Shown here: positions 21,917 to 47,800 of the stretch, piece after piece
Layout: each line of letters starts with the position of its first letter
Numbering within the stretch: position 1 is the stretch's first letter
Source of the DNA: a virus
Taxonomy: Duplodnaviria; Heunggongvirae; Uroviricota; Caudoviricetes
Reading direction: 5' to 3' (one strand)
IMG/VR virus record: IMGVR_UViG_3300045988_147321
Length of the DNA: 64,000 bases
Notes under the pieces: model-generated
Seen by the model: the letters and a program-made list of their open reading frames with translations, nothing else
What the model was told of the DNA's origin: nothing
Database searches by the model: none
Position numbers and translations under genes: made by a program

Positions 21917-22609
21917 ATGAAAGGCGAAGTGAAAGAGCGCGGCATGATTTTCAACGATGAGATGGTCCGGGCCATCCTCGAAGGAAGGAAGACGCAGACT
22001 CGCCGACCTGTAAAAAATGTCAGGGCCGATAACTGCCTGGTTATCCGTAAACCGACAAAGAAACGCAATGGTGTCTATACCCACGTTATGGATGCACCGG
22101 AACATGGTTTATGCCCGTTCGGTAACGTTGGTGATCGTATATGGGTCCGTGAAGCGTGGGCGATATTAGGCAATGAGGATGGTTGCAGTGTGGACTGGAA
22201 CGACAACCTTTGTCGTGACGATGAGAAGAACGCAGCAAGGATTTATCGGGCCAGTTGTGAGCAAAAGCCTGGTGATTACGGTTTATGGTCGATACCCGAT
22301 GATGCCGACTGGAAACCTCACACTGTGAATGAAAAGTATGAAGGAGGGTGGTGTCCATCAATTCACATGCCGCGATGGGCATCGCGCATTTTGCTGGAAA
22401 TTACCGACGTGCGTGTGGAACGGCTGCGTGATATGAGCGAGGCAGATGCTAAAGCAGAAGGCGCATCTCCGGCGATGTACAAAATTACGCCGCCGGAAGC
22501 TGTTTATCGCGTTGGTTTTGGTGATATCTGGCGCAGTATTTACGGGCAGGATAACTGGCTATCTAACCCGTGGGTATGGGTAATCGAGTTTAAGCGCGTT
22601 CAGGAATAA
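21917..22609 (+). CDS. ASCH/PUA-like domain protein
   Basis: 230 aa; N-terminal FNDEMVRAILEGRKTQTRR pattern typical of ASCH-like phage proteins; strong AAGGGGGA Shine-Dalgarno. Confidence 0.4.
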   Translation: MKGEVKERGMIFNDEMVRAILEGRKTQTRRPVKNVRADNCLVIRKPTKKRNGVYTHVMDAPEHGLCPFGNVGDRIWVREAWAILGNEDGCSVDWNDNLCRDDEKNAARIYRASCEQKPGDYGLWSIPDDADWKPHTVNEKYEGGWCPSIHMPRWASRILLEITDVRVERLRDMSEADAKAEGASPAMYKITPPEAVYRVGFGDIWRSIYGQDNWLSNPWVWVIEFKRVQE

Positions 22610-22612
22610 ACC

Positions 22613-23491
22613 GTGAGTATGCATCAAGTCGTCAGCTTTTCAGGTGGACGAACATCGGCTTATCTCGTTCATCTGATGGAAGCACAGCGAAAAGCTGGCG
22701 CTAGCGTCCATTTCATTTTTATGGATACCGGCTGTGAACATCCTCTGACGTATCGCTTTATTCGTGAGGTTGTGAAGTTCTGGAATGTACCGCTAACGGT
22801 GTTGCAGGTCGATATAAATCCAGAACTTGGGCAGCCAAATGGTTATACGGAATGGGAACCAAAGGATATTCAGACGCGAATGCCGGTGCTTAAACCGTTT
22901 ATGGACATGGTTAAAAAGTACGGTACGCCATACATCGGCGGCGCGTTCTGTACTGACAGGCTAAAACTCACCCCTTTCACGAAATATTGCGATGACCATT
23001 TTGGGCGAGGGAATTACATCACATGGCTGGGTATTCGTGCGGACGAACACCGTAGGCTGAAACCGAAACCGGGCGTCCGGTATCTTGCAGAGCTGTCAGA
23101 TTTTGATAAGTCGGATGTTATCCGGTGGTGGCGAAAACAACCTTTTGATTTGCAAATCCCGGAGCACCTCGGGAACTGTGTTTTTTGCATCAAAAAGTCA
23201 ACGCAAAAGCTGGGGCTTGCATGTAAAGACGAACCTGGTCTGATGCGGGTTTTTAATGAACTGGTTACAGGCAAACACGTCAGAGATGGTCATCGCAGAA
23301 CAGGTAAAGACGTTATGTACCGTGGCCACCTGACGCTTGACGGGATTGCCAGAATGTATGCCGACAGTGACTACAGAAATTTGTATCAGGCGATGGTGCT
23401 GGCCAAGCGGTTTGATACTGGTTCGTGTTCCGAATCATGTGAAATCTGGGGTGACCAATTGGAGTTGAAATTCGAAGAGGTAGTGGAATGA
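22613..23491 (+). CDS. PAPS-reductase-like PP-loop ATP pyrophosphatase family protein
   Basis: 292 aa; VSFSGGRTSAY PP-loop motif. Confidence 0.5.
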   Translation: MSMHQVVSFSGGRTSAYLVHLMEAQRKAGASVHFIFMDTGCEHPLTYRFIREVVKFWNVPLTVLQVDINPELGQPNGYTEWEPKDIQTRMPVLKPFMDMVKKYGTPYIGGAFCTDRLKLTPFTKYCDDHFGRGNYITWLGIRADEHRRLKPKPGVRYLAELSDFDKSDVIRWWRKQPFDLQIPEHLGNCVFCIKKSTQKLGLACKDEPGLMRVFNELVTGKHVRDGHRRTGKDVMYRGHLTLDGIARMYADSDYRNLYQAMVLAKRFDTGSCSESCEIWGDQLELKFEEVVE

Positions 23492-23691
23492 CAATCGTAA
23501 AAACCCATACCGGTACCGTGATCACCAAAGATGGCCCGAAGGTAAAAAAACTGCACCAAACAGAGCGGATGTGGGTCGTCGGCAAAAACGAGTTTTACCA
23601 CAAAGAAACTGGACGCCGCCATTTTGCAGAAAATACGCGCCGCCGACTGCTGTTAGACACCATCAAGCCTATCGAGGTGAAGCATGTTTAA
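23488..23691 (+). CDS. Small hypothetical protein
   Basis: 67-aa ORF overlapping the upstream stop. Confidence 0.3.
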   Translation: MTIVKTHTGTVITKDGPKVKKLHQTERMWVVGKNEFYHKETGRRHFAENTRRRLLLDTIKPIEVKHV

Positions 23692-23923
23692 ACAGAACGA
23701 AAAAGCTATCGCTCAAATTGCTGATTATATCCCGCGTGCGTGCCGGGGTATGCAGTTGCAGGAAGCCAAAGCGCGCCTGGAGAAAAAAATTGCGCTCTAT
23801 ATTGATGACGGCTGTGATGCCGCCGTTCTTAACGCGGCGTTCGCACCAGCTCTTAACTGTCACACTCGGGAGTCTTTTTTTTCATGCATCGCAGCGCAAC
23901 TCCGCCAAGGAGGCAACCAGTGA
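23684..23923 (+). CDS. Small hypothetical protein
   Basis: 79-aa ORF. Confidence 0.3.
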   Translation: MFKQNEKAIAQIADYIPRACRGMQLQEAKARLEKKIALYIDDGCDAAVLNAAFAPALNCHTRESFFSCIAAQLRQGGNQ

Positions 23924-24552
23924 GCAAGATTGACTATCAGGCACTGCGTGAGGCGGCGGAACGTGCAATTCCAGCAATGGAACGCCTGTTAATGTTGCCA
24001 GCTGATGATGATTTGTTAAGTGAACAGGAACTTAAAGATTACGGTGTGGATATTGATGCGCTCAACGCCTTCAAATTTCTGGCCGGACCAGAAACCGTGC
24101 TGGCACTACTGGATGAACGGGAAAGAAACCAGCAATACATCAAACGCCGTGACCAGGAGAACGAGGATATTGCGCTAACGGTAGGGAAGCTGAGAGTTGA
24201 GCTTGAGGAAGCAAAATCAAAACTCAACGAGCAGCGTGAGTATTACGAAGGTGTTATCTCGGATGGAAGTAAGCGCATAGCAGAACTGGAAGCGCGGGAA
24301 ATAAAACCAGCCAAAGGTGAAGTTCTGGTCGTTGTATCTGGTTTTACTGGTTGCGGAAAAAGCGCCATTGCCGGGGAAATAGAAATCGCGATGAAGGCTA
24401 TTGGTGTACCGGTTAAGTGGACTAATGGCGATGCAGAAAAGCGCATGACTGGCGCTGACTGGCTGACTGCGATTGAGATGTACAAACCAACTGTGCGCAT
24501 CGTGGAAGTTAATGTGCCACGCGCCGCTGGCATTCGCATCAAAGGAGAGTGA
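23920..24552 (+). CDS. Coiled-coil protein with a C-terminal P-loop-like GFTGCGKS motif
   Basis: GTG start after GGAGG, GTGA overlap with the upstream gene (ORF track start 23884). Confidence 0.4.
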   Translation: MSKIDYQALREAAERAIPAMERLLMLPADDDLLSEQELKDYGVDIDALNAFKFLAGPETVLALLDERERNQQYIKRRDQENEDIALTVGKLRVELEEAKSKLNEQREYYEGVISDGSKRIAELEAREIKPAKGEVLVVVSGFTGCGKSAIAGEIEIAMKAIGVPVKWTNGDAEKRMTGADWLTAIEMYKPTVRIVEVNVPRAAGIRIKGE

Positions 24553-24553
24553 T

Positions 24554-25069
24554 ATGGCGTTAACACACCGCGAACTCTGTCAGATTGCGTACAAGTTCCT
24601 TAAGCGCAACGGGTTCAAGGTTTGTTTTCATGACCGCTTTATAGCTGTAACCAGTACCGGAGAACAGCCAGATGCTATGGGATTCAGAAATTCAGCATCA
24701 TGCCTGATAGAGGCGAAGTGTTCTCGTGCTGATTTGTTGGCAGATAGAAAAAAGCGTTTCCGTAAAAATCCCTCACTTGGCATGGGCGACTGGCGATTCT
24801 TTATTAGTGAGCCGGGAATTATTTCAGTTGAGGATTTACCTCCCGGCTGGGGATTACTTCACGTTGTTAACGGAAGAGTACGGAAAGTACATGGATGGCC
24901 CAAGGGGAATTGCTGTTGGGGTAACCCTGAAGATAAACCTTTTATTGGGAATAAGCAGGTTGAATGCGATTACATGTTATCTGCATTAAGGCGCATGGAG
25001 TTGAGAGGGCACCTTAATGAAATATATGACGGTGTAATTGTTAATAAGAAAGAAGGAAACGCGGCATGA
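24554..25069 (+). CDS. PD-(D/E)xK-type nuclease-like protein
   Basis: Start MALTHREL after AAAGGAGAG; PDAMGF ... CLIEAKCS motif arrangement. Confidence 0.4.
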   Translation: MALTHRELCQIAYKFLKRNGFKVCFHDRFIAVTSTGEQPDAMGFRNSASCLIEAKCSRADLLADRKKRFRKNPSLGMGDWRFFISEPGIISVEDLPPGWGLLHVVNGRVRKVHGWPKGNCCWGNPEDKPFIGNKQVECDYMLSALRRMELRGHLNEIYDGVIVNKKEGNAA

Positions 25070-26283
25070 TCACTATTACCAAAGAGCGACTACTGACAAT
25101 CAAGCAGTGGCGCGAAACATACGGACCTGGTAGCAACGTTGTACTGCCAGCAGAAGAAGCGGAAGAACTGGCACGAATTGCTCTGGCATCGCTGGAAGCA
25201 AAACCAATAGGTGCATTCCACATTGCAGAACAGCAAGTTGACGGCACAAGTGACTACCTCAAGGATGGAGAATGGCCTATTGATAATGGAATTATTGAGG
25301 TCTACGCCGCTCCCCCCGTTCCAGTAGTACCGGAAGAAAAACCAATGCCTAATCCTCTTAGCATGTACGCGGTTGATGCTGTTGCCGCTATTGCAGAGGT
25401 GAGAGGCTGGAACGCCTGCCGCGCCGCCATGCTTCAGTCCGGAAACTTTCGGGAAAACAAGAATTCGTCAACCAATAATTTTCGGGAAATCGCGGAAACG
25501 TCAACCAACTATCCGGTAATTCCTAGTGAGGTGTTGTCCGCAATCCTGAAGGTTGCCAAGATTCGTGCCGATTTCGATGATTTTGACGGTGACAGGCGAG
25601 GTATCGGTGATTGTCTGGATGAGGCTGAGCAAGAGCTTATCGTTACCATTAACAAATATGCCAGTCAGTTGGCAGCAGAACCGATAGCGACTAATGACGT
25701 TCGAGAGCAAACAGCCGTTCCGCCAGTTCCTGTAATACAGGCTGATGTCGCGCAGGCAATTGAAAAACTCAAACGGAAATTAGTGGAATGCAATCGCTAT
25801 AACTACTGCGCAGATGCAGTTAAGGGCGTTGAGTATGCCTGCCACGCTGCCATGCTTCAGGGTAGCCAACCTGTAAGCCAAACTTACAAGTTTCCAGTTA
25901 ATACACCTTGCCAGGATGCGCCAGCCCATATCTGGCTGCAAACAGCTGGAGTATGGCCAGAAGATGGCGAGTTAAGCGAATTAACATGGTGCAGCCACAA
26001 TCAGCACCATGATGACACGCTATATGTTCGAGCTGACTTGGTAAATGGCAATTCTCCGGTAACTCCGGATGGTTGGATAAGCTGTAGTGAGCGAATGCCG
26101 AATACCAAAACAGCCGTTCTTGTTGCCGTGGAGTTTGACAGGAAAGGTGACTGGCGAATGAAATGGGCTACTTACATCCCGGGGCATCCTGACGCTAATG
26201 ATGGGTGGATAATTCCTGGTGCGTCGTGGAAACCGTCACACTGGATGCCGCTACCAGAACCGCCGCAGGAGGTGAATCAATGA
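25066..26283 (+). CDS. Hypothetical protein with a DUF551-like C-terminal domain
   Basis: 405 aa; C-terminal W/P-rich segment as in many phage proteins. Confidence 0.4.
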   Translation: MITITKERLLTIKQWRETYGPGSNVVLPAEEAEELARIALASLEAKPIGAFHIAEQQVDGTSDYLKDGEWPIDNGIIEVYAAPPVPVVPEEKPMPNPLSMYAVDAVAAIAEVRGWNACRAAMLQSGNFRENKNSSTNNFREIAETSTNYPVIPSEVLSAILKVAKIRADFDDFDGDRRGIGDCLDEAEQELIVTINKYASQLAAEPIATNDVREQTAVPPVPVIQADVAQAIEKLKRKLVECNRYNYCADAVKGVEYACHAAMLQGSQPVSQTYKFPVNTPCQDAPAHIWLQTAGVWPEDGELSELTWCSHNQHHDDTLYVRADLVNGNSPVTPDGWISCSERMPNTKTAVLVAVEFDRKGDWRMKWATYIPGHPDANDGWIIPGASWKPSHWMPLPEPPQEVNQ

Positions 26284-26347
26284 GCTGGCCTGAAGCATTC
26301 ACCACGGTAGGAATTGTGATGGCGGCAGCACTGGGTTTGTATTCAAT

Positions 26348-26599
26348 TTGTCGCTGGTGGTAACGATGGGAAAAATAACTTTTGTAGTCGAATTTGAGGA
26401 TGGTAAAGAGCCACCTGTTAGCGCCAATCTTGATGTTGCTGGTGGCAGGCTTGTTTCGGTTCTATTTGGTGACTACCGAGATGACTTCTTCCAACCAGAA
26501 GAAGTTGATGTAGTGCGAGAGGCATTAAACGAGTTAAGTGTTGATAACGATGATGCTCATGCGGAAATCATCCAAAAAATGGAACTGCTAACTCACTAA
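26348..26599 (+). CDS. Small acidic hypothetical protein
   Basis: 83-aa ORF. Confidence 0.35.
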   Translation: MSLVVTMGKITFVVEFEDGKEPPVSANLDVAGGRLVSVLFGDYRDDFFQPEEVDVVREALNELSVDNDDAHAEIIQKMELLTH

Positions 26600-26647
26600 A
26601 TTATCAATTATGGTGCTATCACCTACGACACCGAGAGAAAATTTATA

Positions 26648-26770
26648 ATGTCAAAAGTAAATGTTTTGATTTTTTCAGCAATTGTTGGCTTTGGTTTTAC
26701 TGCCGGAGTGCAGATTTATATTACGTGGGAAAAAATCATCAACTACGCATGGAGTTGTTTTATTAAGTGA
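26648..26770 (+). CDS. Small hydrophobic peptide (40 aa, single transmembrane segment)
   Basis: MSKVNVLIFSAIVGFGFTAGVQIYITWEKIINYAWSCFIK read directly; AT-rich; not in the ORF track. Confidence 0.3.
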   Translation: MSKVNVLIFSAIVGFGFTAGVQIYITWEKIINYAWSCFIK

Positions 26771-26777
26771 GGTAAGT

Positions 26778-27071
26778 ATGTGGAGAGGTAATAGTCATGG
26801 CAAAAGCCAGATGATACTTACCGAATATAAGCTAGACCACAAAACCAATAAATCACGTTCAGTATATTTGCTCCGGCACAATAGCCGCGTAAGAAATACC
26901 GTGCTGGAACAAAATCTGACAGTTGAAATGGATAATTACGGGGGATTCAAGCCAACAATTTCACTTGATGATTTTCCTCGTGGTTTAAGCGAAAGAGAAG
27001 CAATGCTGAAATTAGCAGAATGGCTACAAAGATTAAGCATTGTTATTGAAGATAACTGGTCTGAACCTTAA
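26778..27071 (+). CDS. Hypothetical protein (97 aa)
   Basis: Start MWRGNSHGK after GAGGT; ORF track lists an extended 26682-27071. Confidence 0.35.
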   Translation: MWRGNSHGKSQMILTEYKLDHKTNKSRSVYLLRHNSRVRNTVLEQNLTVEMDNYGGFKPTISLDDFPRGLSEREAMLKLAEWLQRLSIVIEDNWSEP

Positions 27072-27077
27072 ATTTAT

Positions 27078-27452
27078 ATGATGACACTAAAACATTTTCT
27101 TGACCGCCCATTATGGGCGGCAGCCGCAGGCTATGACTTTAATTATATGGATTGCATGTCTTATACCGCCAATGCATACGACTATTCCTTCAGTCTGCTG
27201 CTTAATTCTTTAAGAATATTGCCGCAAACAGAAGTTGGAGAGATTCATTTATGGCTATTGGGCTTTATCGCGGCTGGAGTTGGTATTGCTGTATGGCCTT
27301 TTATTTTCTGGCTGGTGGCTGTTGTAGTGTGGTTTAAGTGCAAGACGTACCGGAGAAAGTATTTCTTAGGTGATGGAATGACTGATATTGCCAAAATGAA
27401 CATTGAAAAATGGACTAAGGAATGTGAAAAGAAATGGCGCAAAAAGAAATGA
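27078..27452 (+). CDS. Membrane protein with a two-segment hydrophobic core and a basic C-terminus
   Basis: 124 aa; LWLLGFIAAGVGIAVWPFIFWLVAVVVWF. Confidence 0.4.
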   Translation: MMTLKHFLDRPLWAAAAGYDFNYMDCMSYTANAYDYSFSLLLNSLRILPQTEVGEIHLWLLGFIAAGVGIAVWPFIFWLVAVVVWFKCKTYRRKYFLGDGMTDIAKMNIEKWTKECEKKWRKKK

Positions 27453-28084
27453 CCAGAATCACTGAAGAGCGTATATTAGAGATTATTTCCCGTATCGAAA
27501 TGTATGGTCACGGTGCTGGATATACGGCAGATGAAGTATTGGAAATAGCCCAGCAGATGCTGGCCTTGAGACAAAAAGAGCAACATGAAAGTAATACGTG
27601 TAGATTGAATTTTGAGCAGTGGCTGGAACAGCAACGCGCGAAAATCGATGTGGACTGCGGTTGTGTGTCCACTGAAACATTCATGCACTGGCTGCGGGTA
27701 GCTTACGAGGCTGGCAACTATCCGGATATTCCGGATAGTTCGGTGCCAGCGCCAGGAAAGGGCGTCACCGGTGAACGTATCCGCATTAAGCCGCATGTTT
27801 ATCGCGAACTGGTTAACCGTCTCCACGATACAGCGATCAAGTGTGCTGGCACCCAGCAATTACGAGAAAGAATTAGCCGTGTTTTGGGCGACGTTATTAC
27901 ACCAGATCATCATAAACAAGCCGAGAAAAGTGACCTGGAAAGGTGTCACCTTGAGGCGGCATTAAACATTAAGCCGGGGCATACGCTTGGCATTATTGAT
28001 GCACTATTGGTTCATAAGATGGCCAGGGCTTTATTGCCGCTGGTGGCTGAAAAGCATGAGGTGGACCATGCCAACGAAAGCTGA
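27434..28084 (+). CDS. Hypothetical protein
   Basis: 216-aa ORF. Confidence 0.4.
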   Translation: MAQKEMTRITEERILEIISRIEMYGHGAGYTADEVLEIAQQMLALRQKEQHESNTCRLNFEQWLEQQRAKIDVDCGCVSTETFMHWLRVAYEAGNYPDIPDSSVPAPGKGVTGERIRIKPHVYRELVNRLHDTAIKCAGTQQLRERISRVLGDVITPDHHKQAEKSDLERCHLEAALNIKPGHTLGIIDALLVHKMARALLPLVAEKHEVDHANES

Positions 28085-28352
28085 ATTACAGGTGCGCGTA
28101 GATGAGCTTGAAAAAGAGAACGCGAGCCTCAAAAAAATGCTGTCGCGGGCGGAAAGGGAATTATCAGGCAAATTATTGCCTGAAGAACTGCCACCAGCAG
28201 ATATACCTGATCGAGTGTCCTGGTGGATGAAGTATTTCCGTGCACCGTGGGAGGCGTTTTGGTGCTACGACCATCGCAGATGGTGTGATGAACTTGATAG
28301 CAATTTTCCCTACTTTGCGGAAGGGAACACCTGCCCTCAATGCAGGGGATAG
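27987..28352 (+). CDS. Hypothetical protein with a C-terminal Cys pair (start uncertain)
   Basis: Likely starts at the internal MPTKAELQ; coiled-coil then NTCPQCRG. Confidence 0.3.
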   Translation: MALLMHYWFIRWPGLYCRWWLKSMRWTMPTKAELQVRVDELEKENASLKKMLSRAERELSGKLLPEELPPADIPDRVSWWMKYFRAPWEAFWCYDHRRWCDELDSNFPYFAEGNTCPQCRG

Positions 28353-39136: not shown

Positions 39137-39778
39137 ATGGATAAGAAAATATGCGTTGTTTCGATGAGCGTCGGCAAACCGGCGTCAATGACTGCTGCAT
39201 GGATCAACAACGAGCTGATAATGGCTGAGCGGACCAGCTACCCTGAACGCCGCCGCGACATGGAACTCCAGCTGCTGCGCGAATTGCGAGAAAAAGAGGA
39301 AAAGGGTTTTATCGTGCTGGTGGAAGAGGAAAACAGCTTTATTACTGGTCGAGTTGGCCAGCGTGTAAGGTTGCGCGATCCCTTCATGAACGGCAGGCCG
39401 GTACTGATTGAAGCAATGCAGATTTACAAGGAGCTGGAACGCCAGAAAGCGATCAAGTTACCGCGCAAGGAATCCGGCAAATACATCCTCCACCAAAGCA
39501 TCTTCGATTCCGAACACGATAAAAAAGGCGATGAATTTTTCAACATCAACTGGAGCGAAATAACGACAGAGCATGTTCTGACGTTACTATGTTGCTTTGC
39601 GACGGAATACAACAACGTTGCCAGCGCAGACTACATCAGGGCAATGGCTGGAGAAGTTGAGGCACGCCAGGAACCATCGTTACTAAGCCCTCTGATTAAC
39701 ATAATTCGCGGAACCCAAACGCTGGCACAAAAACAGGTGCCTAAGGGAGTATTAACAGGAAAAGGAAATTATCTATAA
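39137..39778 (+). CDS. mat: Maturation-control protein homolog
   Basis: Start MDKKICVV (ORF track 39110); P1 mat position. Confidence 0.5.
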   Translation: MDKKICVVSMSVGKPASMTAAWINNELIMAERTSYPERRRDMELQLLRELREKEEKGFIVLVEEENSFITGRVGQRVRLRDPFMNGRPVLIEAMQIYKELERQKAIKLPRKESGKYILHQSIFDSEHDKKGDEFFNINWSEITTEHVLTLLCCFATEYNNVASADYIRAMAGEVEARQEPSLLSPLINIIRGTQTLAQKQVPKGVLTGKGNYL

Positions 39779-39834
39779 ACGTCAATGCATTAGGGTATAC
39801 TTCTCCGTAGAACTATAAGTAAATGGAGTAAGTA

Positions 39835-41139
39835 ATGAGCGAGTATATAGAAATTGCCTATGCAGCAGCTACACATAGGCTGTGCTTTCTTACAGGCACT
39901 GGATTTTCAAAGGCTGTTTCTGATGATAAAGCCCCAAGTTGGCAATCTTTATTGGAGCAACTGTGCGGTTTATTGAAGGATGGTGACTCACTCAAAGAGG
40001 AATTATTTCCTGATGGAAAAGCAAAAGACCTTAGCCTTGAAGAGGCTGCTCAGGTTATTGCACTAAAATTTATACTTTCGGGGAAAAATATTTACCAGGA
40101 GATTGAGAAAATCATAGCCTCAATCGAACTTGATCCATCAATTGAATATATTCAAGACTTTTTCAAAGAAAACACATTTAAAGTAATTACGACAAATTAT
40201 GACAAGTTAGCAGAAAAACTGGCTGGAGAGAATCGAACGTGTACAATCACCCCCGGCCTGCCAATTCCAAAATATAATTGTGAGGTTAAAGTCTACCATG
40301 TTCACGGCTCTATAGACTCCCCATCAGATATGGTTGTTACTAGCGAGGATTATTTCAGATTTATAAATGGTAATTCTTACTTTTCAAATAAACTAAGCAC
40401 AGTTCTACATGAAAACACTATTGTTATTCTTGGCTATTCTCTAAGTGACGCGAACCTCAAGGCGATTATAAATGAATATAAGGTATTTTCACGGGACAAC
40501 GTAATGTCCTCCAATATTTTCCTTATTTCCCGAGGAAAACTATTGCAACCTATTAAAGATTACTATTTTTCCTGCTTTGGGATTAGGGTTATAGATAAAA
40601 CAGAGGTGTCTGATTTCTTTAGAAAACTTAACAAGAAAATTCCAGAAGCAAAAAAAATAAAAGACAAATTGAGGCACTCAATCAAATCGGTAATAAAAAA
40701 CGGAAGAGAGTATAAAATAGAGTTCTTGAAGTTAGAGGATTCTTTTTATCATATCATTTCCTCCATTTCATCATCTGGATATAGCTGGAATGATGAAAAG
40801 GTATTAAATGTTTTTTGTGATATAATAGATAAAAAAATAGATCTTACTAAAGAGTCTGGCGCATGGGAGCAGTATGAACACCTGGCAAAATGGCTTATTT
40901 ATTTCGGTAGTTTATTTGAAGTAAAAGGAACCAACTTTGAGAAAAAATACATACATGCGGTTGAACACTCAATGACTTATATGAATAAACCTTACGAAAC
41001 AGGCTACTCATGGCGAGCATATCTAGCCTGGAAAACAAAATGGCCTTCACTGACAGCATCTAACCGCTCTCTTATTAAGAGTAAGATGGAAGAAATCCCG
41101 CTACAACAGATTCACGATATTATATCTAAGTTTATATAG
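39835..41139 (+). CDS. SIR2-domain protein (ThsA/DSR-like NADase fold) with an uncharacterised alpha-helical C-terminal domain
   Basis: 434 aa; GTGFS (21-25), TTNYD (119-123), HVHGS (155-159), ILGYSLSD (198-205) match SIR2_2-type motifs; gene is visibly AT-rich compared with its flanks. Confidence 0.7.
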   Translation: MSEYIEIAYAAATHRLCFLTGTGFSKAVSDDKAPSWQSLLEQLCGLLKDGDSLKEELFPDGKAKDLSLEEAAQVIALKFILSGKNIYQEIEKIIASIELDPSIEYIQDFFKENTFKVITTNYDKLAEKLAGENRTCTITPGLPIPKYNCEVKVYHVHGSIDSPSDMVVTSEDYFRFINGNSYFSNKLSTVLHENTIVILGYSLSDANLKAIINEYKVFSRDNVMSSNIFLISRGKLLQPIKDYYFSCFGIRVIDKTEVSDFFRKLNKKIPEAKKIKDKLRHSIKSVIKNGREYKIEFLKLEDSFYHIISSISSSGYSWNDEKVLNVFCDIIDKKIDLTKESGAWEQYEHLAKWLIYFGSLFEVKGTNFEKKYIHAVEHSMTYMNKPYETGYSWRAYLAWKTKWPSLTASNRSLIKSKMEEIPLQQIHDIISKFI

Positions 41140-41148
41140 TATATTTAT

Positions 41149-41175
41149 CTCCGGCCTAATCTCCCTAGGCCGGAG
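41149..41175. terminator. Bidirectional hairpin terminator
   Basis: CTCCGGCC-taatctcccta-GGCCGGAG between convergent genes. Confidence 0.5.
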
Positions 41176-41180
41176 AGTTC

Positions 41181-41429
41181 TTAATCAGCATTCAGGAGCA
41201 ATGCGTTATCTATGATGATCTGCTCCCATTCCTCGAATGCCCGGTCGCGGACGCCCTGGGGAACGCTGTTAGTTTTGAAATCGACGACCGTCCGCCATTT
41301 TCCGTCCGGACGGTACATGCGCAGAGCTTTACTTCCCCCTTCCCTGCGCACCTCAACGTTATGCTTGTCAGCAAACTCTTGTAATGCTCGTAGCGTCCCA
41401 TGCTTTACTGTGTAGTATCGCTTTTTCAA
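41181..41429 (-). CDS. lxc: Small protein downstream of ulx
   Basis: 82-aa ORF; assigned by synteny. Confidence 0.4.
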   Translation of the reverse strand: MKKRYYTVKHGTLRALQEFADKHNVEVRREGGSKALRMYRPDGKWRTVVDFKTNSVPQGVRDRAFEEWEQIIIDNALLLNAD

Positions 41430-41866
41430 GTTTTCTCTCCAGCCTGTGCCAAGGCTTCAACTTCCAAATCGTAAGACTCAAACTCATAGTCCTGGTCGTC
41501 AACTTCTTCAGGCACTGGCAGTAAATGCCAGGCTGAGTATATCTGACCATTATCAAAACGCTCCTGGCTGTAGAGCGTCGCGGCTATGAGTGTTAGCGCC
41601 GGGCGGTCATAACGGTAAATTTTGCGAACGTCACGGTCAACGAGACGACCGAAATTACCATAACCGCGCTCCAGTAATAATTTTTTAATTTCCGGCCAGT
41701 ATGGACCATAGCTGCGGTACAGGCGGGGATTTTTCAGTAATCGCCCGCGTAGCCCTGACAGGAAGAAATCAACGTATTCGTCTTCTGTCTTTCCTAACAA
41801 CGCTGTACGGAGTACCGCCTCAAGATATGTTTTATTCGGTTTTATTGTATCAGATAGTGTGGCCAT
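41426..41866 (-). CDS. ulx: Protein upstream of lxc, co-operonic with darB
   Basis: 146-aa ORF; assigned by synteny. Confidence 0.4.
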   Translation of the reverse strand: MATLSDTIKPNKTYLEAVLRTALLGKTEDEYVDFFLSGLRGRLLKNPRLYRSYGPYWPEIKKLLLERGYGNFGRLVDRDVRKIYRYDRPALTLIAATLYSQERFDNGQIYSAWHLLPVPEEVDDQDYEFESYDLEVEALAQAGEKT

Positions 41867-41899: not shown

Positions 41900-44800
41900 T
41901 TATGCGTATTGTTGGATGACGGCCAGAACGTCCGCCACGTTGTGTTTTGTCTCGATAATCCACCAGTTACCCGGGAAATCGCTGTTCTTCGCCTTCGCTG
42001 GCAGCCAGCGAGCGCCGAATTTCGCCTTGATTGCGTCTTTCGCACGGAAAAGAACGCCTTTCATGCCTGAGGCTTCCTGAAGCCCAAATACCTCGCCAGC
42101 GGCGAATTTTGGTGCGTACATCATCTTCAGGTCGGCGGTGGATACGCGATAATTCAGACCAAGAGACTGAGCTATGCTGGTGGCATCACCCTGTATTGAT
42201 GATAACTCTTCTTGTTTCTCGTTTCTGGCGGCAATCTCTTCCTCCGTGATGTTGCCAAGGGCTAGGTTTATCCGATCAGCGTCGGCCTGTTTCTCTTCAT
42301 CGGTGCGCCCGGCAAGAACCGTGTTAATTCTCTGCAATATCTCCACATGATTCTTGCGCATGCTGAGCAATTCCGGCGTAACCTCGTTAAGATCCACCAG
42401 CCCAAGGATGGCAAGGTCGGAAAACATTGATACCAGGTTGTAGGTCATGCGATAGCTGAGTTGACCATAGGCTGATGGCAACTTCACCGCATCCATTTGA
42501 TAGGCATCCATAAATTTAGAGCCGTCGTTTACGACATCCGCTATTGCAGGTGTGATTTTCCCTGTGGTGGCGGCCTCCCTGATTGCTGTTACCCACGATT
42601 GAGTCAGCGCGGCGACTGCATGATTCAGATTGGCTTCCCGTTCTGCTGCGATGCGCGCGCTTGCTGCGTCCATTGCCTGCTCGATCTCGGCTTTATTGCT
42701 GTAAATGCCAATGGTGCCAAACTGTGCTGTGGTGATCTCATAATCTGACGCCCGGAACTCATTGGTACCGAAAATGGCATTGGTGACTTCAAGTTCAGAA
42801 TCCCCGTTACGAGTAGCCCCCTGGCTTGTTTTTTCCGGCATTCTGGCGATCGCATCCGCTATTTTCTCCTGAATTGCTTCAGGGGATAGCGTATCTCCGT
42901 ATGACGCGATTACATCGCCATAATTGGAGCCAAACAGTTCAACCAGGAATGTTTCTGCCGAACGGATCTGGCGGTTATTCCCTTCCGACATCATACCAAG
43001 CACCCATTTTGCAATTGACGACTTCAGCGCGCCGTCACGGCGATCCGGGTAAACCGCATGCTTCAGTGGGTCCGTATAGGTACCAACAAAATCGATGCTA
43101 TAGCCTGACTCTGTAGTCTGAACGCCGTATGAGTCAGTGATTTTGATCATGCCGCGCTGCTGGAAACGGTAGAAATCGTCACAGGAAATGATGTCGTTAA
43201 TCCCGGCGATGGAGACGCCACCACTGATTTTCTGCATAACAGCATCTTCATCGGGAGTTACATCAACCTGTTTATCCAGCGTCTTCACATCCCAGTTACC
43301 CGATTTGGTGCCTTTGAAGGTAAAGATGATCTCCACGTCTGCGCGCTGGCTGTCGAAGTCCAGCGACTTAATGCGAACGATATCACCGGCACAATCATAG
43401 TATTGGCCTACACGCCATGAGCGATCGCCGATAACAAGGAACTCATTCGCATGGTTAACCAGATCAGGATCAACATCCAGAATGCCTTTATTTATTGCAT
43501 CCTCCACCAGCGGGCGCAGGCGTTTGATATCCGTCGCGGCCTTCTGAGTACGGTTCAATAATTTCTCATAGCGGGAGATGGCCTGAGAGATATTAGCCTT
43601 GCGCTGAATGGCGCTTTTCAACGACGCGCGATACTGTGCTAACAACATACGGTCTGTGTGATGGACGCTACCCCAGCGGGCTTTCCAGTCTGCGTTATCA
43701 GCTGCTTTGGCCATTACCGCCTGTTTGAATTTAGCTACCTCGGCGGTGGTCTTTTCAAGTTCCGCTTTGCTTCGCTCCAATTCAGCGGTAAGTACCTCCA
43801 CATCCTCACCAGCTGCGTGCTGCGCCTTGATGTAGTTCTGAAGGTCGATAGTAGCCTGTTCTTTCTGGCGAGCGCGTTTCGCAGCTTTCGCCTTATCCAT
43901 TTGAACCTGCATCATTGCCAGACGTTCGCCGTCATCCTTCGCGGTATACATCTGCATTTCGATCATGTCATTGGCGTCGGCGTTCTCCATTTCTGACTTA
44001 TCTGAACGGAGGATATCGGAGATCCAGCCTGCTTTACGCTTCAGCGTCTTCAGTCGGTATTCATCGAAAGACCCCTTGCCGCAGTAGTAGTGAACGCGAA
44101 CGCTTGCACGGTTGGAGCCAACTCGTGCACCGCGACCGTTACGTTGTGCGATGCTGGCTGGTGTCCATGGCAACGTCAGATGATGGATGTCAGTCGTTCC
44201 TCGATGCAGGTTGATACCCACCTCTGCCTTTTTGTTGCAGATGATGATCGGAGTCCGGCCCTCCTGGAAGTCGGCTGCAATCTTTTCCAGACCGCCCAAC
44301 GACATTTCATTTTGCTGCGCGATATAGGCGTCATACAGAGCCATTTGCTCGTTGTATTTCGCTATCTGTGCATCTGTTGGTTCATCCGGTAGCTCTTTCG
44401 GCGGTTTAACCGCTTTCAGTTTCTTACCGGTTTTACCTGCCTCGGCAACCGTCTGAGCATTCAGGATCCCCACCTTTGAAGGTTCAAGGTTTAGAGCATT
44501 GCAGATAATGCGCTTGAGCTTCTGGTGCTGCGTTTTTTCATCGGTGAAGATGATTTGCTTACCTTCCGGGAAAAACTCCTTCAGCGTGGCGATCAGCTTC
44601 GCGTATTTCGGCGTAACGGGGTGAGTTACGGTCTGTTCGTCAATGCCAAACCTGGCCAGGCGCTTATTCACTTCCTGCTCGAACGCTTCCGGAACCTGCA
44701 ACTGAATAAACTCGCCCTTATCTATCAGGGAGTATTGCGATTGCTGCGTGATTGAATCATCACTGTCGTCGTCTTCGCTGGTGGCTTGTTTAGGCAAACT

Positions 44801-47800
44801 GTCCGCCAGCTGCTGCACCGCATCGGCGTACTCCGGCAGGAAACGATAGGTGATCCGGCGATAGTACAGGTCCATGTCAGTACATACGCGGTCCATATCC
44901 CTGATTATTGAGAAGATCGGACGGGCTTTCTCGTGCTCAATCACGCCGTCTTCATTGACCGAGGTCGTTACGCCATTGTTGGCTTTGGCCGCCGCTTCCG
45001 CCTGCTGACGCAATTCTTCATACGCCGCCAGTTGTTCTTCAGTAAGTGGTGCATCCTGCTGGTGTTCGTCCAGCTCCGGGATCTCCACGGTATCCTTAAC
45101 GTCTTCCGCCGTTTTAAGCGTTACCCAGCGATGGAATATACCGCGCAGCGCATCAAGGTTTTCAAAGCCCACCAGCGCCATTTTTTCTTCAACTTCACCG
45201 CTAATTTTCTGTACCGTTTCCAGCCTGGTCTTGCCGAAGAATTTAACGAAGTCATCAGGACCGTAGATCCCCATGTTCTGCCAGTATTCCTTCGGCAGAA
45301 CATGAGAAAGCATGTTGTATGCATCGATCGGGGTGTTAACGACTGGCGTTGCAGTCAGGAGAACCGGCCCGCGCCCGCCATTCTTTTTCATCAGGTACGC
45401 GTTTTTAATTGCCATATCTCGCGCCGATTGCGCCACCGCGCTGGTGGGCAGATAGGCCAGTTGTGACGCTTCGCGACCATTTTTATAGCTATTGCGGTAG
45501 TTGTGACCTTCGTCGGCGATCACACTATCGAAGCCCATATCCTCAAAGTACGGATACTTCTCTGCTTTTTCGGTGCCGGTATCTGAATACTCCGACAATA
45601 CCCGGCGACGCGCGGCCTCTTTGCGGTGGGAGTCGGAGTCCATTGCGCTGGCTACGCGCCCGGCTGCAACGAAGTCATAAAGCATATCCTGTGCATGCTC
45701 ATCTACGGTGTCATCACGTAGCGGAATGCGGGCGTATTGTTCTTTGGTAAACACGACTGCACGGTAATTTGAGTGCGGGATCGCGTTCATCCGCGCCGTG
45801 ATAGTGGCTTCATCTGCCAGCTTAAGAGCATCGCGCATAACTGGAGTGCCATCAGTACCAAGAACAGGTTTACCGTTCTCATTGAGCACCGGCACCTGGC
45901 GAATCTGATCGCCATCCATCAGCACATCAAGACCGACGAACAGGTAGTTACTGAATGCCTCTTCACTCAGGAACTCTTTTGCTTCGTAATACCAGTTTTC
46001 CAGCACTGATTTAGGCACTACATACGCAGTACGGGTGGAGCGACCGTTCTCATAGTTGAACGCCTCAAGCGCCAGCGCGGTCGTCGTTTTACCCAGCCCG
46101 GTGCCGAAGCCCAGGATGCCGCGCCCATCTTCGGACAGTCGTCTCACCTCGCTATTCTGGTAATCAAATGGCTGGCGCTTACCGCTTAATCCCTTCACCC
46201 CAAGCGGATCGCCAGAGTGTTCATACGGGATATTGCTATTGAACACATCGTTGTATTTGGCAACCAGCTCATCGTAGCGATCGTGCGTCTTGATCCACTT
46301 ATTGAACTGGTCCTCAAGCAGTGCCATCTGCTCGCGGTAGCCGTTCGCCGTCGCGCTATCTTTGCCACCGATACGCGCACCATTGAGATACTTTTCCAGC
46401 TGTGCCGGGAACCCGGTCGCGTTTTCACCCGATTTACGGTCCCACTCGTAGCGGATCTCGCCTGTTTCTTTATCCTTGCGCTGGACGACACCGTATCGGT
46501 GCCCGACGAACAGACCATCACCACCGTGATAGGTGTCAGAAACCATTTCGTCGCCTTCCAGCTGCACTGACTGCACATAGCGCAGATCCGGATAGCCGTT
46601 TTCCTGCAAAAATTCCAGAATGACGGAGCGGTCGAACCAACGGCTATTGAGCTTAAAGCGGATATTCTCTGCTGGCGTCTTGATGCGCTTCTCTTCGATC
46701 GCTGCCAGCTGATTAAGGACGTTGTTCTTTACTGGACCGTCGGGGAGTGTGGCAAGGAATTCCTGTTTTGGTGCCACTATCTCGTTAATGTCGCCGCTGG
46801 TGGCGCGGGCGAACGGAACAATCCCGCCATACGGTGAAACCGCAATGCCAGGGGTGCTGGCCAATAAATTAAGCAACTCGTCATCACTGGCTGGCAGTTC
46901 GCCGGTAAACGCAAGGCGGAAATCATCGAGCTGGATTGGATCGCGAGTGAGATCACTGTAGAGATAACGCAGGGTGTCCTGATAGCTGGTGGAGTCATAA
47001 CTGGCGCTGGAATCATGCGTAACCAGTTTTCCTGTCAGCTCGTCAGAAATAGTGCCATCCAGCTTAATTGCACCACGGAAAGCAAACCAGGCGCGCGCAC
47101 CGCTCCCCGATAATTTCGCTATCGGACCGCGACCGGGGTTACCAAAACGGTCAATCTCTGCCTGCAAACGGGATACCAGAGAAAGGCGCTGCTGTTCGAT
47201 TTGTTCAGCACTATGCCCGGCGGCCTTCATGTCCTGATATTCAATTAACATCCGGCCAATCATCGCCCCGCGATACAAGCGTTCACGGTATTTTTCAGGC
47301 TGGCTGTTAATCCAGTCCACCAGCTGCACCATATCGTCGCTGATTGATGTGGTGTACTTATCGCGGACATTTGCCATCTGGGTAAATGTCATACCGAGAC
47401 GGCCTTCTGTTGTAGTCAGGTTTCGCTGAAGAGCCTCCCAGCTGTCCGCGCCATAACTGGCAACATCAATCTTCAGCTCCTTCCCTGCATCAGATTCAAT
47501 CCAGCGACCACCAGCATATTTTTGCCATACGCCATTAATCAGGCGCATTTCCCCTTCATCAACAACATCTGCGGTCGGTGACGGTTCAGCCATATCGAGC
47601 AAAGACCAGTCGATACGACTTTCGAAACGATGAATCAGCTTCGCTTTAAGAGCCTGGTTATCAATCTGCCCGTCGGCACGAACCTCAATACGCCCCTGGA
47701 AGCCCTTTTCCTGGGTACCATGAACAAACCGGCGGCCGTCCTTTTCAAACCACTTGCCAGAAATAAACGTTGGCCAAAGCACATTTGCCGATTCAAGAGT

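Follow-up and report, generated by a model that had tools for sequence, protein, structure and literature searches.

The three small genes packed at positions 26640-27452 of the stretch analysed in this work (hereafter the window, 64,000 nucleotides in full) are very probably independent mosaic accessory genes that reside in a repressor-controlled early operon. Such genes, each mobile on its own, typically occupy the variable parts of early operons (ea/exo-xis and nin regions) in temperate enterobacterial phages. It is well supported that, in one sub-lineage of P1-like elements, these genes (named A, B and C) were joined by recombination at gene boundaries. The best explanation that we can propose for the whole of the data blends this mosaic origin with an action directed at the envelope, and we consider it rather probable as a blend; the envelope-directed mode of action of A and C, taken separately, is a tentative suggestion. 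The three genes and the AT-rich tract around them are the following:

26648-26770, plus strand: gene A, 40 aa, one transmembrane (TM) segment, phrog_5525 (PHROG E 1.2e-24)
26778-27071, plus strand: gene B, 97 aa, soluble, ATG at 26778, phrog_1258 (1.5e-48)
27078-27452, plus strand: gene C, 124 aa, one TM segment and a basic tail, phrog_2638 (2.3e-62)
26475-27600, no strand: AT-rich tract, GC 0.33-0.43 in 150-bp windows

An earlier note had described at this place a trio of small genes encoding two membrane proteins and one soluble protein, the shortest of them lying outside the ORF track. The trio is indeed present as three tightly packed plus-strand ORFs, hydropathy assigns A and C to the membrane and B to the soluble fraction, and the RefSeq/PLSDB plasmid gene tables inspected contain no gene at A. 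Gene A is annotated in the record of phage vB_EcoM-813R1, and four hypothetical proteins are annotated in SJ46 under the region matching the cluster. Judged from sequence conservation, A, B and C are real genes under purifying selection, belonging to PHROG families without assigned function. Each of them displays an end-to-end PHROG family match, and pairwise dN/dS ratios against homologues range from 0.07 to 0.67 across the three genes (0.12-0.67 for A, 0.07-0.28 for B and 0.27-0.37 for C). Ratios of 0.13-0.17 were obtained against distant homologues of A and B; comparisons of this kind extend to homologues at 50-67% identity, where synonymous sites are saturated. By our own estimate, the probability of a chance open frame at 38% GC is ~1e-3 for 97 codons and ~2e-4 for 124 codons. 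Since the length of A alone is insufficient for significance, its coding status relies on its homologues. It is hardly credible that the three frames are non-functional, whether as ORFs open by chance or as remnants decaying within junk DNA of high AT content. Although A counts just 40 codons and is missing from the gene tables mentioned above, and C displays no obvious Shine-Dalgarno sequence, lengths are conserved along full-length PHROG matches, dN/dS stays well below 1 including against the homologues at 50-67% identity (at saturated synonymous sites), the AF2 models of B and C are confident, and the genes are intact across hundreds of plasmids.

The stretch had also been reported as more AT-rich than its surroundings. 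GC profiling confirmed this and revealed a composition that is not backbone-like, with a GC of 0.381 at 26640-27452 versus 0.484 for the whole window, which is among the lowest 1.4% of equal-sized windows (percentile test). In fine mapping, the AT-rich tract is slightly wider than these limits and runs from the 3' end of a 77-aa gene through all of A-C to ~150 nt inside the pmgU-fusion gene. At 11 of 11 loci, the C homologues are 2-8 GC points under their own loci, and the AT-richness of C is in part a property of its gene family. Homologues of B and A in other contexts have a GC of 0.48-0.53; for these two genes, the AT-richness points to an import from a donor of higher AT content.

The element itself is P1-like, as previously recognized, its best DNA matches being Punavirus and P1-like records. 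The features of the operon that surround the cluster are listed below:

21722..21738, plus strand: C1 repressor operator (OpmgT/Op88 equivalent), consensus with 1 mismatch
21917..22609, plus strand: pmgT homologue, 230 aa, 68% identity to P1 PmgT residues 1-232, phrog_874
22613..26599, plus strand: lambdoid ea/nin-type early gene block between pmgT and pmgU, from Pfam and PHROG scans
22613-23491, plus strand: PAPS-reductase-like gene, in the ea/nin-type block
23884-24552, plus strand: Ead/Ea22-like gene, in the ea/nin-type block
25066-26283, plus strand: DUF551 chimera, in the ea/nin-type block
26280-26363, plus strand: 27-aa TM peptide, in the ea/nin-type block
26366-26599, plus strand: 77-aa phrog_3876 gene, in the ea/nin-type block
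27434..28084, plus strand: pmgU homologue with a 103-aa N-terminal extension, residues 104-204 being 95% identical to P1 PmgU

The predicted promoters P1pmgT/P2pmgT overlap the C1 operator at the head of the operon that includes the cluster, and this 251-bp operator/promoter region is 99% identical to the annotated OpmgT/PpmgT of P1. The first long gene of the operon is the pmgT homologue, which shows a weak, sub-threshold similarity to the ASCH domain; the ea/nin-type block additionally contains small genes without assigned function and a phrog_9263 gene. From 21917 to 28352, the chain of same-strand ORFs is unbroken with overlapping or short junctions, and the start of the pmgU fusion overlaps the end of C by 19 nt. 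A-C lie ~5 kb inside this operon headed by the C1 operator. A consensus scan gave no plus-strand promoter- or terminator-like match at 26400-27440; as cryptic promoters are common in AT-rich DNA, an internal promoter active in lysogens is conceivable. Promoter- and terminator-like matches are generally at or below shuffled expectation in this simple scan, and matches to the P1 late-promoter -22 element near the cluster are at chance level only.

In P1, pmgU comes directly after pmgT, and P1, P7 and D6 match the region from pmgU onwards only. The cluster A-C forms the distal end of a ~4.8-kb insert between these two genes. Landmarks in the window and in related records are pap/OpmgT (to 21738) upstream and hot, humD and phd-doc downstream, and the cluster is cargo of pmgT-humD, a part of P1-like elements already known to be hypervariable ("variable region 8"). 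P1-like variable regions carry defence-type cargo, and a SIR2-domain gene is found elsewhere in the window. Eight regions of P1-like phage-plasmids have been described as highly variable, the pmgT-humD interval among them, and variable regions have been linked to low GC (PMC9603915). This published region has the same position as the cluster, but A, B and C individually and their range outside P1-like elements are not described there (PMC9603915). In JL22, pmgT is replaced by gene clusters of unknown function (PMC9603915), whereas here pmgT is kept (68% identical) and the insert is located between pmgT and pmgU. In a CRISPRi screen of P1, pmgT, pmgU and pmgV were found to be non-essential (PMC10695390).

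The accessory nature attributed to the stretch is borne out by its absence from P1, P7 and D6 and by its patchy presence in P1-like elements; a check of presence and absence across them showed that the cluster is not universally conserved. Of 5426 complete E. coli genomes, 674 have the pmgS backbone; 298 of these 674 carry some part of the cluster and 221 at least 80% of it, a carriage of ~33-44% of the P1-like elements in this set. In PLSDB, 293 plasmid records match the cluster, 274 of them being typed as non-mobilizable. Layouts were counted with IMG/VR scans, which returned almost only near-identical P1-like loci, and a scan of genome contigs gave 7 loci. The P1-like layouts comprise ABC, BC, B alone, and B and C separated by an insertion sequence (B-IS-C) or by an extra ORF. 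B occurs without C in ~8% of them. Conversely, B is present in 79 of 80 C-anchored P1-like loci, almost always adjacent to C at a fixed spacing of 10 nt, and A is never found in P1-likes without B and C. We attribute this pattern to shared descent at ≥92% identity; a lineage-specific functional link among A, B and C within P1-likes is possible.

The earlier view of the three genes as a functional cluster is not supported by the comparison with other phages. Outside P1-likes, none of 13 C, 6 B and 1 A loci includes another member of the trio in flanks of up to 6 kb on each side, and within P1-likes the BC and B-alone layouts and the insertions that split B and C argue in the same direction. Homology breaks ~4 nt upstream of the ATG of B and directly after the stop codon of C. 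A pair of 41-aa and 124-aa genes next to xis in Salmonella phage 29485 was considered as A plus C by size and was rejected, the sequences being unrelated. Homologues of A (50-53% identity) are placed after ea22/eaa genes in lambdoid coliphages. B has 130 homologues in prophages of Enterobacterales, which in lambdoid prophages are located in nin or ea regions, 3' of O/P or 5' of int. The C family is common to four phage types: P1-like, N15-like, lambdoid and Proteus Gorganvirus. In N15-like elements, C lies between exonuclease and Dam, the neighbours being RdgC, an RNase_T-type exonuclease, Dam and DinI; in a lambdoid, it is found 3' of O/P; and in Proteus Gorganvirus, an apparently non-temperate genus, it is located between exonuclease and primase with a helicase also nearby.

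Regarding the proteins, A contains a single uncharged segment (residues 5-26; Kyte-Doolittle 19-residue maximum of 1.83), while B has no uncharged hydrophobic segment (maximum of 0.33). The AF2 model of B (pLDDT 81) consists of a four-stranded beta meander followed by a C-terminal helix, and its only match in a Foldseek search against BFVD was an unnamed viral protein (1.5e-5), with nothing annotated. C carries an uncharged segment at residues 57-86 (maximum of 2.38) and a tail with 14 K/R in the 38 residues after the TM segment. Its N-flank counts 3 K/R versus 6 D/E and its C-flank 14 K/R versus 5 D/E. The AF2 model of C (pLDDT 90) is all-helical with one continuous helix at residues 53-97, in view of which a two-pass hairpin, considered for the 30-residue hydrophobic stretch, was rejected. 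The protein can be divided into a conserved N-terminal head (residues 3-28), a long TM helix and a basic C-terminal amphipathic helix. A metal site (H6, C26, C88, C116) was considered and dropped, H6 and C116 being unconserved in distant members. At 50% identity, the family forms ~57 clusters among 1.84 billion representatives; its members all measure 58-131 aa, without any fusion to another domain. Shared features are a strongly conserved ~30-residue N-terminal head (F7, P11, G18, Y19, D25-C26) and a P-F-x-F-W TM helix. The only PHROG match of C to a holin family is sub-threshold and concerns its basic tail (phrog_20, E=0.088), and endolysin is never among the neighbours of C.

Scans of A, B and C with Pfam, NCBIfam and PADLOC gave nothing significant, PADLOC returned 0 families even at E up to 1, and no superinfection-exclusion family was found among their PHROG matches. 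Rfam on 26200-27700 had no match at E up to 1, RNA folding around A is unremarkable on both strands (z-scores of +0.44 and -1.59), and no publications were found under the PHROG ids or RefSeq protein ids of the genes. Nothing in these results speaks for the functions suggested in the earlier note (toxin, superinfection exclusion or abortive infection). We regard as unlikely the corresponding reading in which A and/or C act at the membrane of the plasmid prophage as a lysogen-protecting module by exclusion or abortive infection. Small membrane proteins are a common form of exclusion factor, two of them are encoded here in an AT-rich and patchily spread accessory region, and the defence-type cargo of P1-like variable regions, with the SIR2-domain gene of the window, would suit this idea. 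However, exclusion or abortive-infection genes normally act in lysogens, whereas A-C, ~5 kb inside a C1-controlled operon and lacking a dedicated promoter-like site, should be repressed there, which counts against such a role, as does the PADLOC result. Moreover, the homologues of B and C are found in delayed-early nin, ea and replication operons, including those of the apparently non-temperate Proteus genus, and none of them is in an immunity-region or moron-type position. An interdependent toxin-antitoxin-like module is still far less probable, be it A as a type I toxin with an antisense RNA or C as a toxin neutralised by B. The layout recalls such modules by its small hydrophobic peptide, soluble protein and membrane protein at tight spacing, and a weak minus-strand promoter-like match at 26803-26775 would yield an RNA antisense to A. 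Yet this match is inside the coding sequence of B and such matches are overall under shuffled expectation; Rfam gave no antisense RNA family, and the type I toxin/antisense idea was dropped since RNA folding is unremarkable. In addition, there is no co-inheritance, since C is without B at 13 of 13 and B without C at 6 of 6 non-P1 loci, B lacks C in the P1-like fraction given above and an IS or extra ORF can part the two genes. Finally, Pfam and NCBIfam reveal no Hok, Ldr, Ibs, TisB or other toxin family, and the element already has phd-doc nearby. Compared with type I toxin peptides (Hok/Gef, Ldr, Ibs, TisB), A is alike as a 40-aa single-TM peptide but differs by having no family match, no antisense RNA family or structure and an ordinary operon position instead of a stand-alone locus.

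C might alternatively serve as a membrane anchor or regulator of phage DNA replication or recombination, with A and B as unrelated passengers, an explanation to which we give little credence. In its favour, DNA-metabolism genes surround C in every non-P1 context and are translationally overlapped with it, and its predicted cytoplasmic tail is strongly basic (14 K/R in 38 residues). Such a role exists in phage phi29, whose early membrane protein p16.7 is an organiser of membrane-associated replication. These replication and recombination neighbours are no less compatible with a DNA-related role than with one at the envelope. Against an anchor, the basic C-terminal tail (ECEKKW) is unconserved in distant members whereas the conserved head is predicted to be periplasmic, no DNA-binding domain was matched, P1, N15 and lambda replicate without C, and where a gene lies in a mosaic early operon says little about its function.

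We favour independent accessory genes with an envelope-directed action of A and C, for which the following scenario can be proposed. Without promoter or terminator of their own, A-C would be transcribed together with the rest of the long pmgT operon, in which the C1 operator overlaps the promoters. As this operator and these promoters head the operon and the scan gave no internal signals, the three genes would not be expressed from the plasmid prophage and would come on early once infection or induction has taken place; both timing and function we infer from gene position only. A, with its single TM segment, and C would insert into the inner membrane while B would stay in the cytoplasm. According to the positive-inside rule, the conserved ~55-aa head of C is predicted to be periplasmic and its K/R-rich helix cytoplasmic, an N-out topology that requires the translocation of a 55-residue tail with three positive charges. 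Each protein may act by itself in lytic growth, modulating the host without being required by the phage. The likeliest target of A and C would be an envelope process, such as a block of secondary DNA entry or of cell division, and B may bind a host or phage protein. The trio would be neither a toxin-antitoxin pair, nor a holin, nor a lysogen-protecting defence system. This mechanism, deduced from position and membrane features, is of low certainty.

The closest known counterparts of the cluster are the lambdoid exo-xis (ea) and nin genes (ea22, ea8.5, orf60a/61/63/73, nin), which are likewise small, mostly uncharacterised and arranged head-to-tail in delayed-early operons, with a patchy spread, exchange at gene boundaries and dispensability for plaque formation. 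In lambdoid prophages, these very regions harbour homologues of A, B and C, and the upstream block of the window contains typical Ead/Ea22-like, DUF551 and PAPS-reductase-like genes. In contrast to their lambdoid counterparts, A-C belong to a P1-like phage-plasmid and would answer to the C1 repressor rather than to CI/N; the studied exo-xis proteins include none of them, and two of the three are membrane proteins. According to two published reports, exo-xis genes are transcribed earliest and modulate the lysis-lysogeny decision (PMC4195576, PMC7093339). The cluster also resembles classical prophage morons as AT-rich extra genes that are inserted between conserved genes and absent from close relatives. 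By standard definition, morons come with a promoter and a terminator that serve them alone and remain active while the prophage is repressed; unlike them, A-C show no flanking promoter or terminator around 26600-27460 (consensus scan) and are embedded in a repressor-controlled operon. As a "works like" model for A and C, we propose the small membrane proteins by which phages act early on the envelope, i.e. T4 Imm and Sp, HK97 gp15, SP01 gp56 and, as a functional analogue, lambda Kil. A and C are of similar size, with one or two TM segments, an early operon and dispensability in common with these proteins.

To conclude, this compositionally odd patch belongs to the ordinary mosaic cargo of pmgT-humD, a region described before, and is not a recognisable toxin or defence system, and its importance beyond annotation is little. 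In this respect, A is conserved and under selection, yet missing from the RefSeq/PLSDB plasmid annotations inspected. The C family is small and well delimited, with a confident structure model and without relatives of known function. It is a doubtful proposal that C represents a compact, hitherto uncharacterised family of inner-membrane proteins made early by phages, maybe with a new mechanism. If true, a head facing the periplasm might, in lytic growth, prevent superinfecting DNA from entering or obstruct a machine of the host envelope; alternatively, C might tether replicating phage DNA to the membrane. B, too, could be novel, as a small inhibitor directed at a host protein or defence. Besides, the region is a record of genes that passed from lambdoid prophages into a repressor-controlled P1 operon, with joints exactly at gene boundaries.

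This window is P1-like phage-plasmid DNA (Punavirus), and its top DNA matches are SJ46, vB_EcoM-813R1, RCS47 and hundreds of ~90- to 100-kb plasmids, typed as non-mobilizable, with Escherichia, Salmonella, Shigella and Klebsiella as hosts. The three small genes considered here (A, B and C) belong to an unbroken chain of plus-strand genes downstream of a C1 operator, in which junctions overlap or abut:

21722-21738, C1 operator, directly after pap
21917-22609 (+), pmgT homologue, 68% identity to P1 PmgT
between the pmgT homologue and A (+), PAPS-reductase-like gene, small unknown genes, Ead/Ea22-like gene, DUF551 chimera, 27-aa transmembrane peptide and 77-aa gene
26648-26770 (+), gene A, 40 aa
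26778-27071 (+), gene B, 97 aa
27078-27452 (+), gene C, 124 aa
27434-28084 (+), pmgU homologue, C-terminal 101 residues 95% identical to P1 PmgU

Around the operator, a 251-bp stretch that takes in both pmgT promoters predicted in the P1 annotation shares 99% identity with P1, and the start of the pmgU homologue overlaps the end of C by 19 nt. Since pmgT is followed by pmgU in P1 itself, with nothing between them, A-B-C makes up the distal part of an insert, ~4.8 kb of lambdoid ea/nin-type genes, that separates the two. A consensus scan found no plus-strand promoter-like or terminator-like sites within or just upstream of A-C (overall counts of such sites did not exceed shuffled expectation), and no P1 late-promoter element lies near these genes. 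In P1-like phage-plasmids, pmgT-humD is one of eight highly variable regions, pmgT is reported to be exchanged for clusters of unknown genes, and low GC tends to mark variable regions (PMC9603915). In a CRISPRi screen of P1, pmgT, pmgU and pmgV were non-essential (PMC10695390).

A 28-aa hydrophobic ORF, MNTAFKIIMAAIYFWLFSITFGGIVAHG, preceded by a CAGGAG ribosome-binding site, sits at 21821-21907 (+), with the C1-controlled promoters of pmgT on one side and the start of pmgT on the other; reference P1 has the same DNA sequence, without an annotated gene at this place. The 27-aa transmembrane peptide MSWPEAFTTVGIVMAAALGLYSICRWW (26280-26363, +), whose start codon overlaps the DUF551 gene stop (ATGA), is a further small membrane peptide of the same operon, upstream of A. 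As for the pmgU homologue, it has a 103-aa N-terminal extension that P1 PmgU lacks and that varies among P1-like layouts, the RCS47 type diverging right after the C stop codon.

All three ORFs are genuine genes, as established by end-to-end matches of A, B and C each to one PHROG family of unknown function (phrog_5525, phrog_1258 and phrog_2638; E from 1e-24 to 2e-62) and by dN/dS ratios of 0.07-0.67 versus homologues (Nei-Gojobori). Against distant homologues of A and B, in which synonymous sites are saturated, the ratio is 0.13-0.17. The genes are closely spaced, all on the plus strand, in the ORF listing, and the B start was set at ATG 26778, where homologues begin (the mechanical ORF list runs to an upstream TTG). 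Hydropathy agrees with the earlier description of a 40-aa hydrophobic peptide, a 97-aa soluble protein and a 124-aa basic-tailed membrane protein: A contains one uncharged stretch (residues 5-26), B lacks hydrophobic segments, and C combines an uncharged stretch of 30 residues (57-86) with a subsequent tail in which 14 of 38 residues are Lys/Arg. In inspected RefSeq/PLSDB plasmid tables, A is intact and has no gene entry (L013 3001-3178, L015 2938-3125), so that a conserved membrane peptide of 40 aa is left unannotated.

The AT-richness noticed earlier was borne out by GC profiling, with a GC of 0.381 at 26640-27452 versus 0.484 for the whole window (lowest 1.4% among equal-sized windows) and an AT-rich tract spanning ~26475 to 27600 at 150-bp resolution. 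Homologues of C are 2-8 GC points under their surroundings at 11/11 loci, and AT-richness is therefore partly intrinsic to this hydrophobic, lysine-rich family. For B and A, the contrast between homologues in other phages (0.48-0.53) and P1-like copies (0.39 for B, 0.33 for A) suggests that the latter may originate from a more AT-rich donor. Elsewhere, AT content in the window peaks in an island at ~39400-41500 (GC minimum 0.327). It contains a gene (39835-41139, +) for a 434-aa SIR2_2-domain protein (Pfam, 1.6e-23) matching the PDC-S25, ThsA-like and LmuA-like models of PADLOC, next to a 2255-aa darB-like gene (41900-48667, minus strand). This SIR2_2 gene is a candidate anti-phage defence cargo.

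Among 5426 complete E. coli genomes, 674 possess the conserved pmgS, 298 any part of the cluster and 221 at least 80% of it. Expressed as cluster-positive over pmgS-positive genomes, ~44% (any part) or ~33% (at least 80%) of P1-like elements carry the cluster, which is absent from P1, P7 and D6; this patchy distribution supports the accessory status previously assumed. About two thirds of carriers have the A-B-C layout, ~20% a B-C layout in which an ASCH-domain gene replaces A (as in RCS47) and ~8% B alone; B-IS-C and B-extra 54-aa ORF-C layouts also exist. Homology between layouts breaks ~4 nt before the B start codon and immediately after the C stop codon, and these breaks are joints that coincide with gene boundaries, as is usual in the modular mosaicism of phages. 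In P1-likes, B is almost always next to C (79/80 C-anchored IMG/VR loci); with identities of 92% or more between the loci, this adjacency probably reflects shared descent. In a minority of P1-likes, B and C are separated by an additional ORF of ~54 aa or by 125-244 bp of inserted DNA (L014 3472-3636 and three further IMG/VR loci), and ISVsa5 is inserted at the same joint in locus L017.

Outside P1-likes, the three genes occur independently. Within flanks of up to 6 kb on each side, neither A nor B was found near C (0 of 13 loci), neither A nor C near B (0 of 6) and neither B nor C at the only A locus. The three-gene cluster of the earlier note thus stands as three adjacent genes but not as one functional unit, its members being found singly in every non-P1 context examined. 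Homologues of B (130 clusters; Klebsiella, Salmonella, Citrobacter, Erwinia, Raoultella and others) fall into two sets: some are nin-region genes situated past O/P and ahead of Q, and the rest precede int in the ea region of lambdoid or P22-like prophages. Those of C have an RNase_T-type exonuclease on one side and Dam on the other in N15-like linear-plasmid prophages, follow O/P in a lambdoid, and lie between exonuclease and primase in Proteus Gorganvirus phages. Homologues of A (50-53% identity) come after ea22/eaa genes in lambdoid coliphages. Besides, two lambdoid nin regions, L179 (Klebsiella-type contig) and L009, share a frame of O, P, small genes and a 660-aa DNA methylase, with a B homologue in the variable middle of one and a C homologue in the other. 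This suggests that B and C are alternative cargo in a single hypervariable slot.

Pfam, NCBIfam and PADLOC searches returned no significant match for A, B or C, the sole hint being a sub-threshold match of the C tail to holin phrog_20 (E=0.088). The C family is small and compact: out of 1.84 billion representatives, it accounts for 57 clusters at 50% identity, and its proteins range from 58 to 131 aa without any fused domain. Conservation falls on the N-terminal head (F7, P11, G18, Y19, D25-C26) and on a proline in the membrane helix, while the basic ECEKKW tail is found in close relatives only. The charge distribution (net negative N-flank; 14 K/R vs 5 D/E in the C-flank) points to an N-out/C-in topology.

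The evidence best supports viewing A, B and C as three accessory genes of an early operon, each independent of the others; their juxtaposition is lineage-specific and not a system. Non-functional ORFs are rejected by the evidence of selection, and a toxin-antitoxin module is contradicted because its members are not co-inherited and because Rfam and RNA-structure tests came out negative. An exclusion or abortive-infection role with A-C expressed in the lysogen, which takes up the suggestion of the earlier note, is weakened by their placement in a repressor-controlled operon and by the absence of defence-family matches; the analysis lent it no support, and it is rather unlikely. A replication or recombination role of C at the membrane would fit its gene neighbourhood, but the tail is not conserved and the head is predicted to be periplasmic.

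As independent accessory genes, A, B and C would have been assembled by boundary recombination in the hypervariable pmgT-humD region, would owe their transcription, presumably after infection or induction, to the pmgT promoters under C1 control, and would be dispensable. In a rather doubtful extension, A and C could act on the cell envelope in lytic development and block secondary infection or division, in the manner of other small membrane proteins that phages make early; B would bind a host or phage protein.

To conclude, A-B-C is a fresh instance of a well-known feature, mosaic accessory genes in an already documented variable region. The most interesting remainder is the C family, which is without known relatives and represents small, sharply defined and structurally confident early phage membrane proteins.
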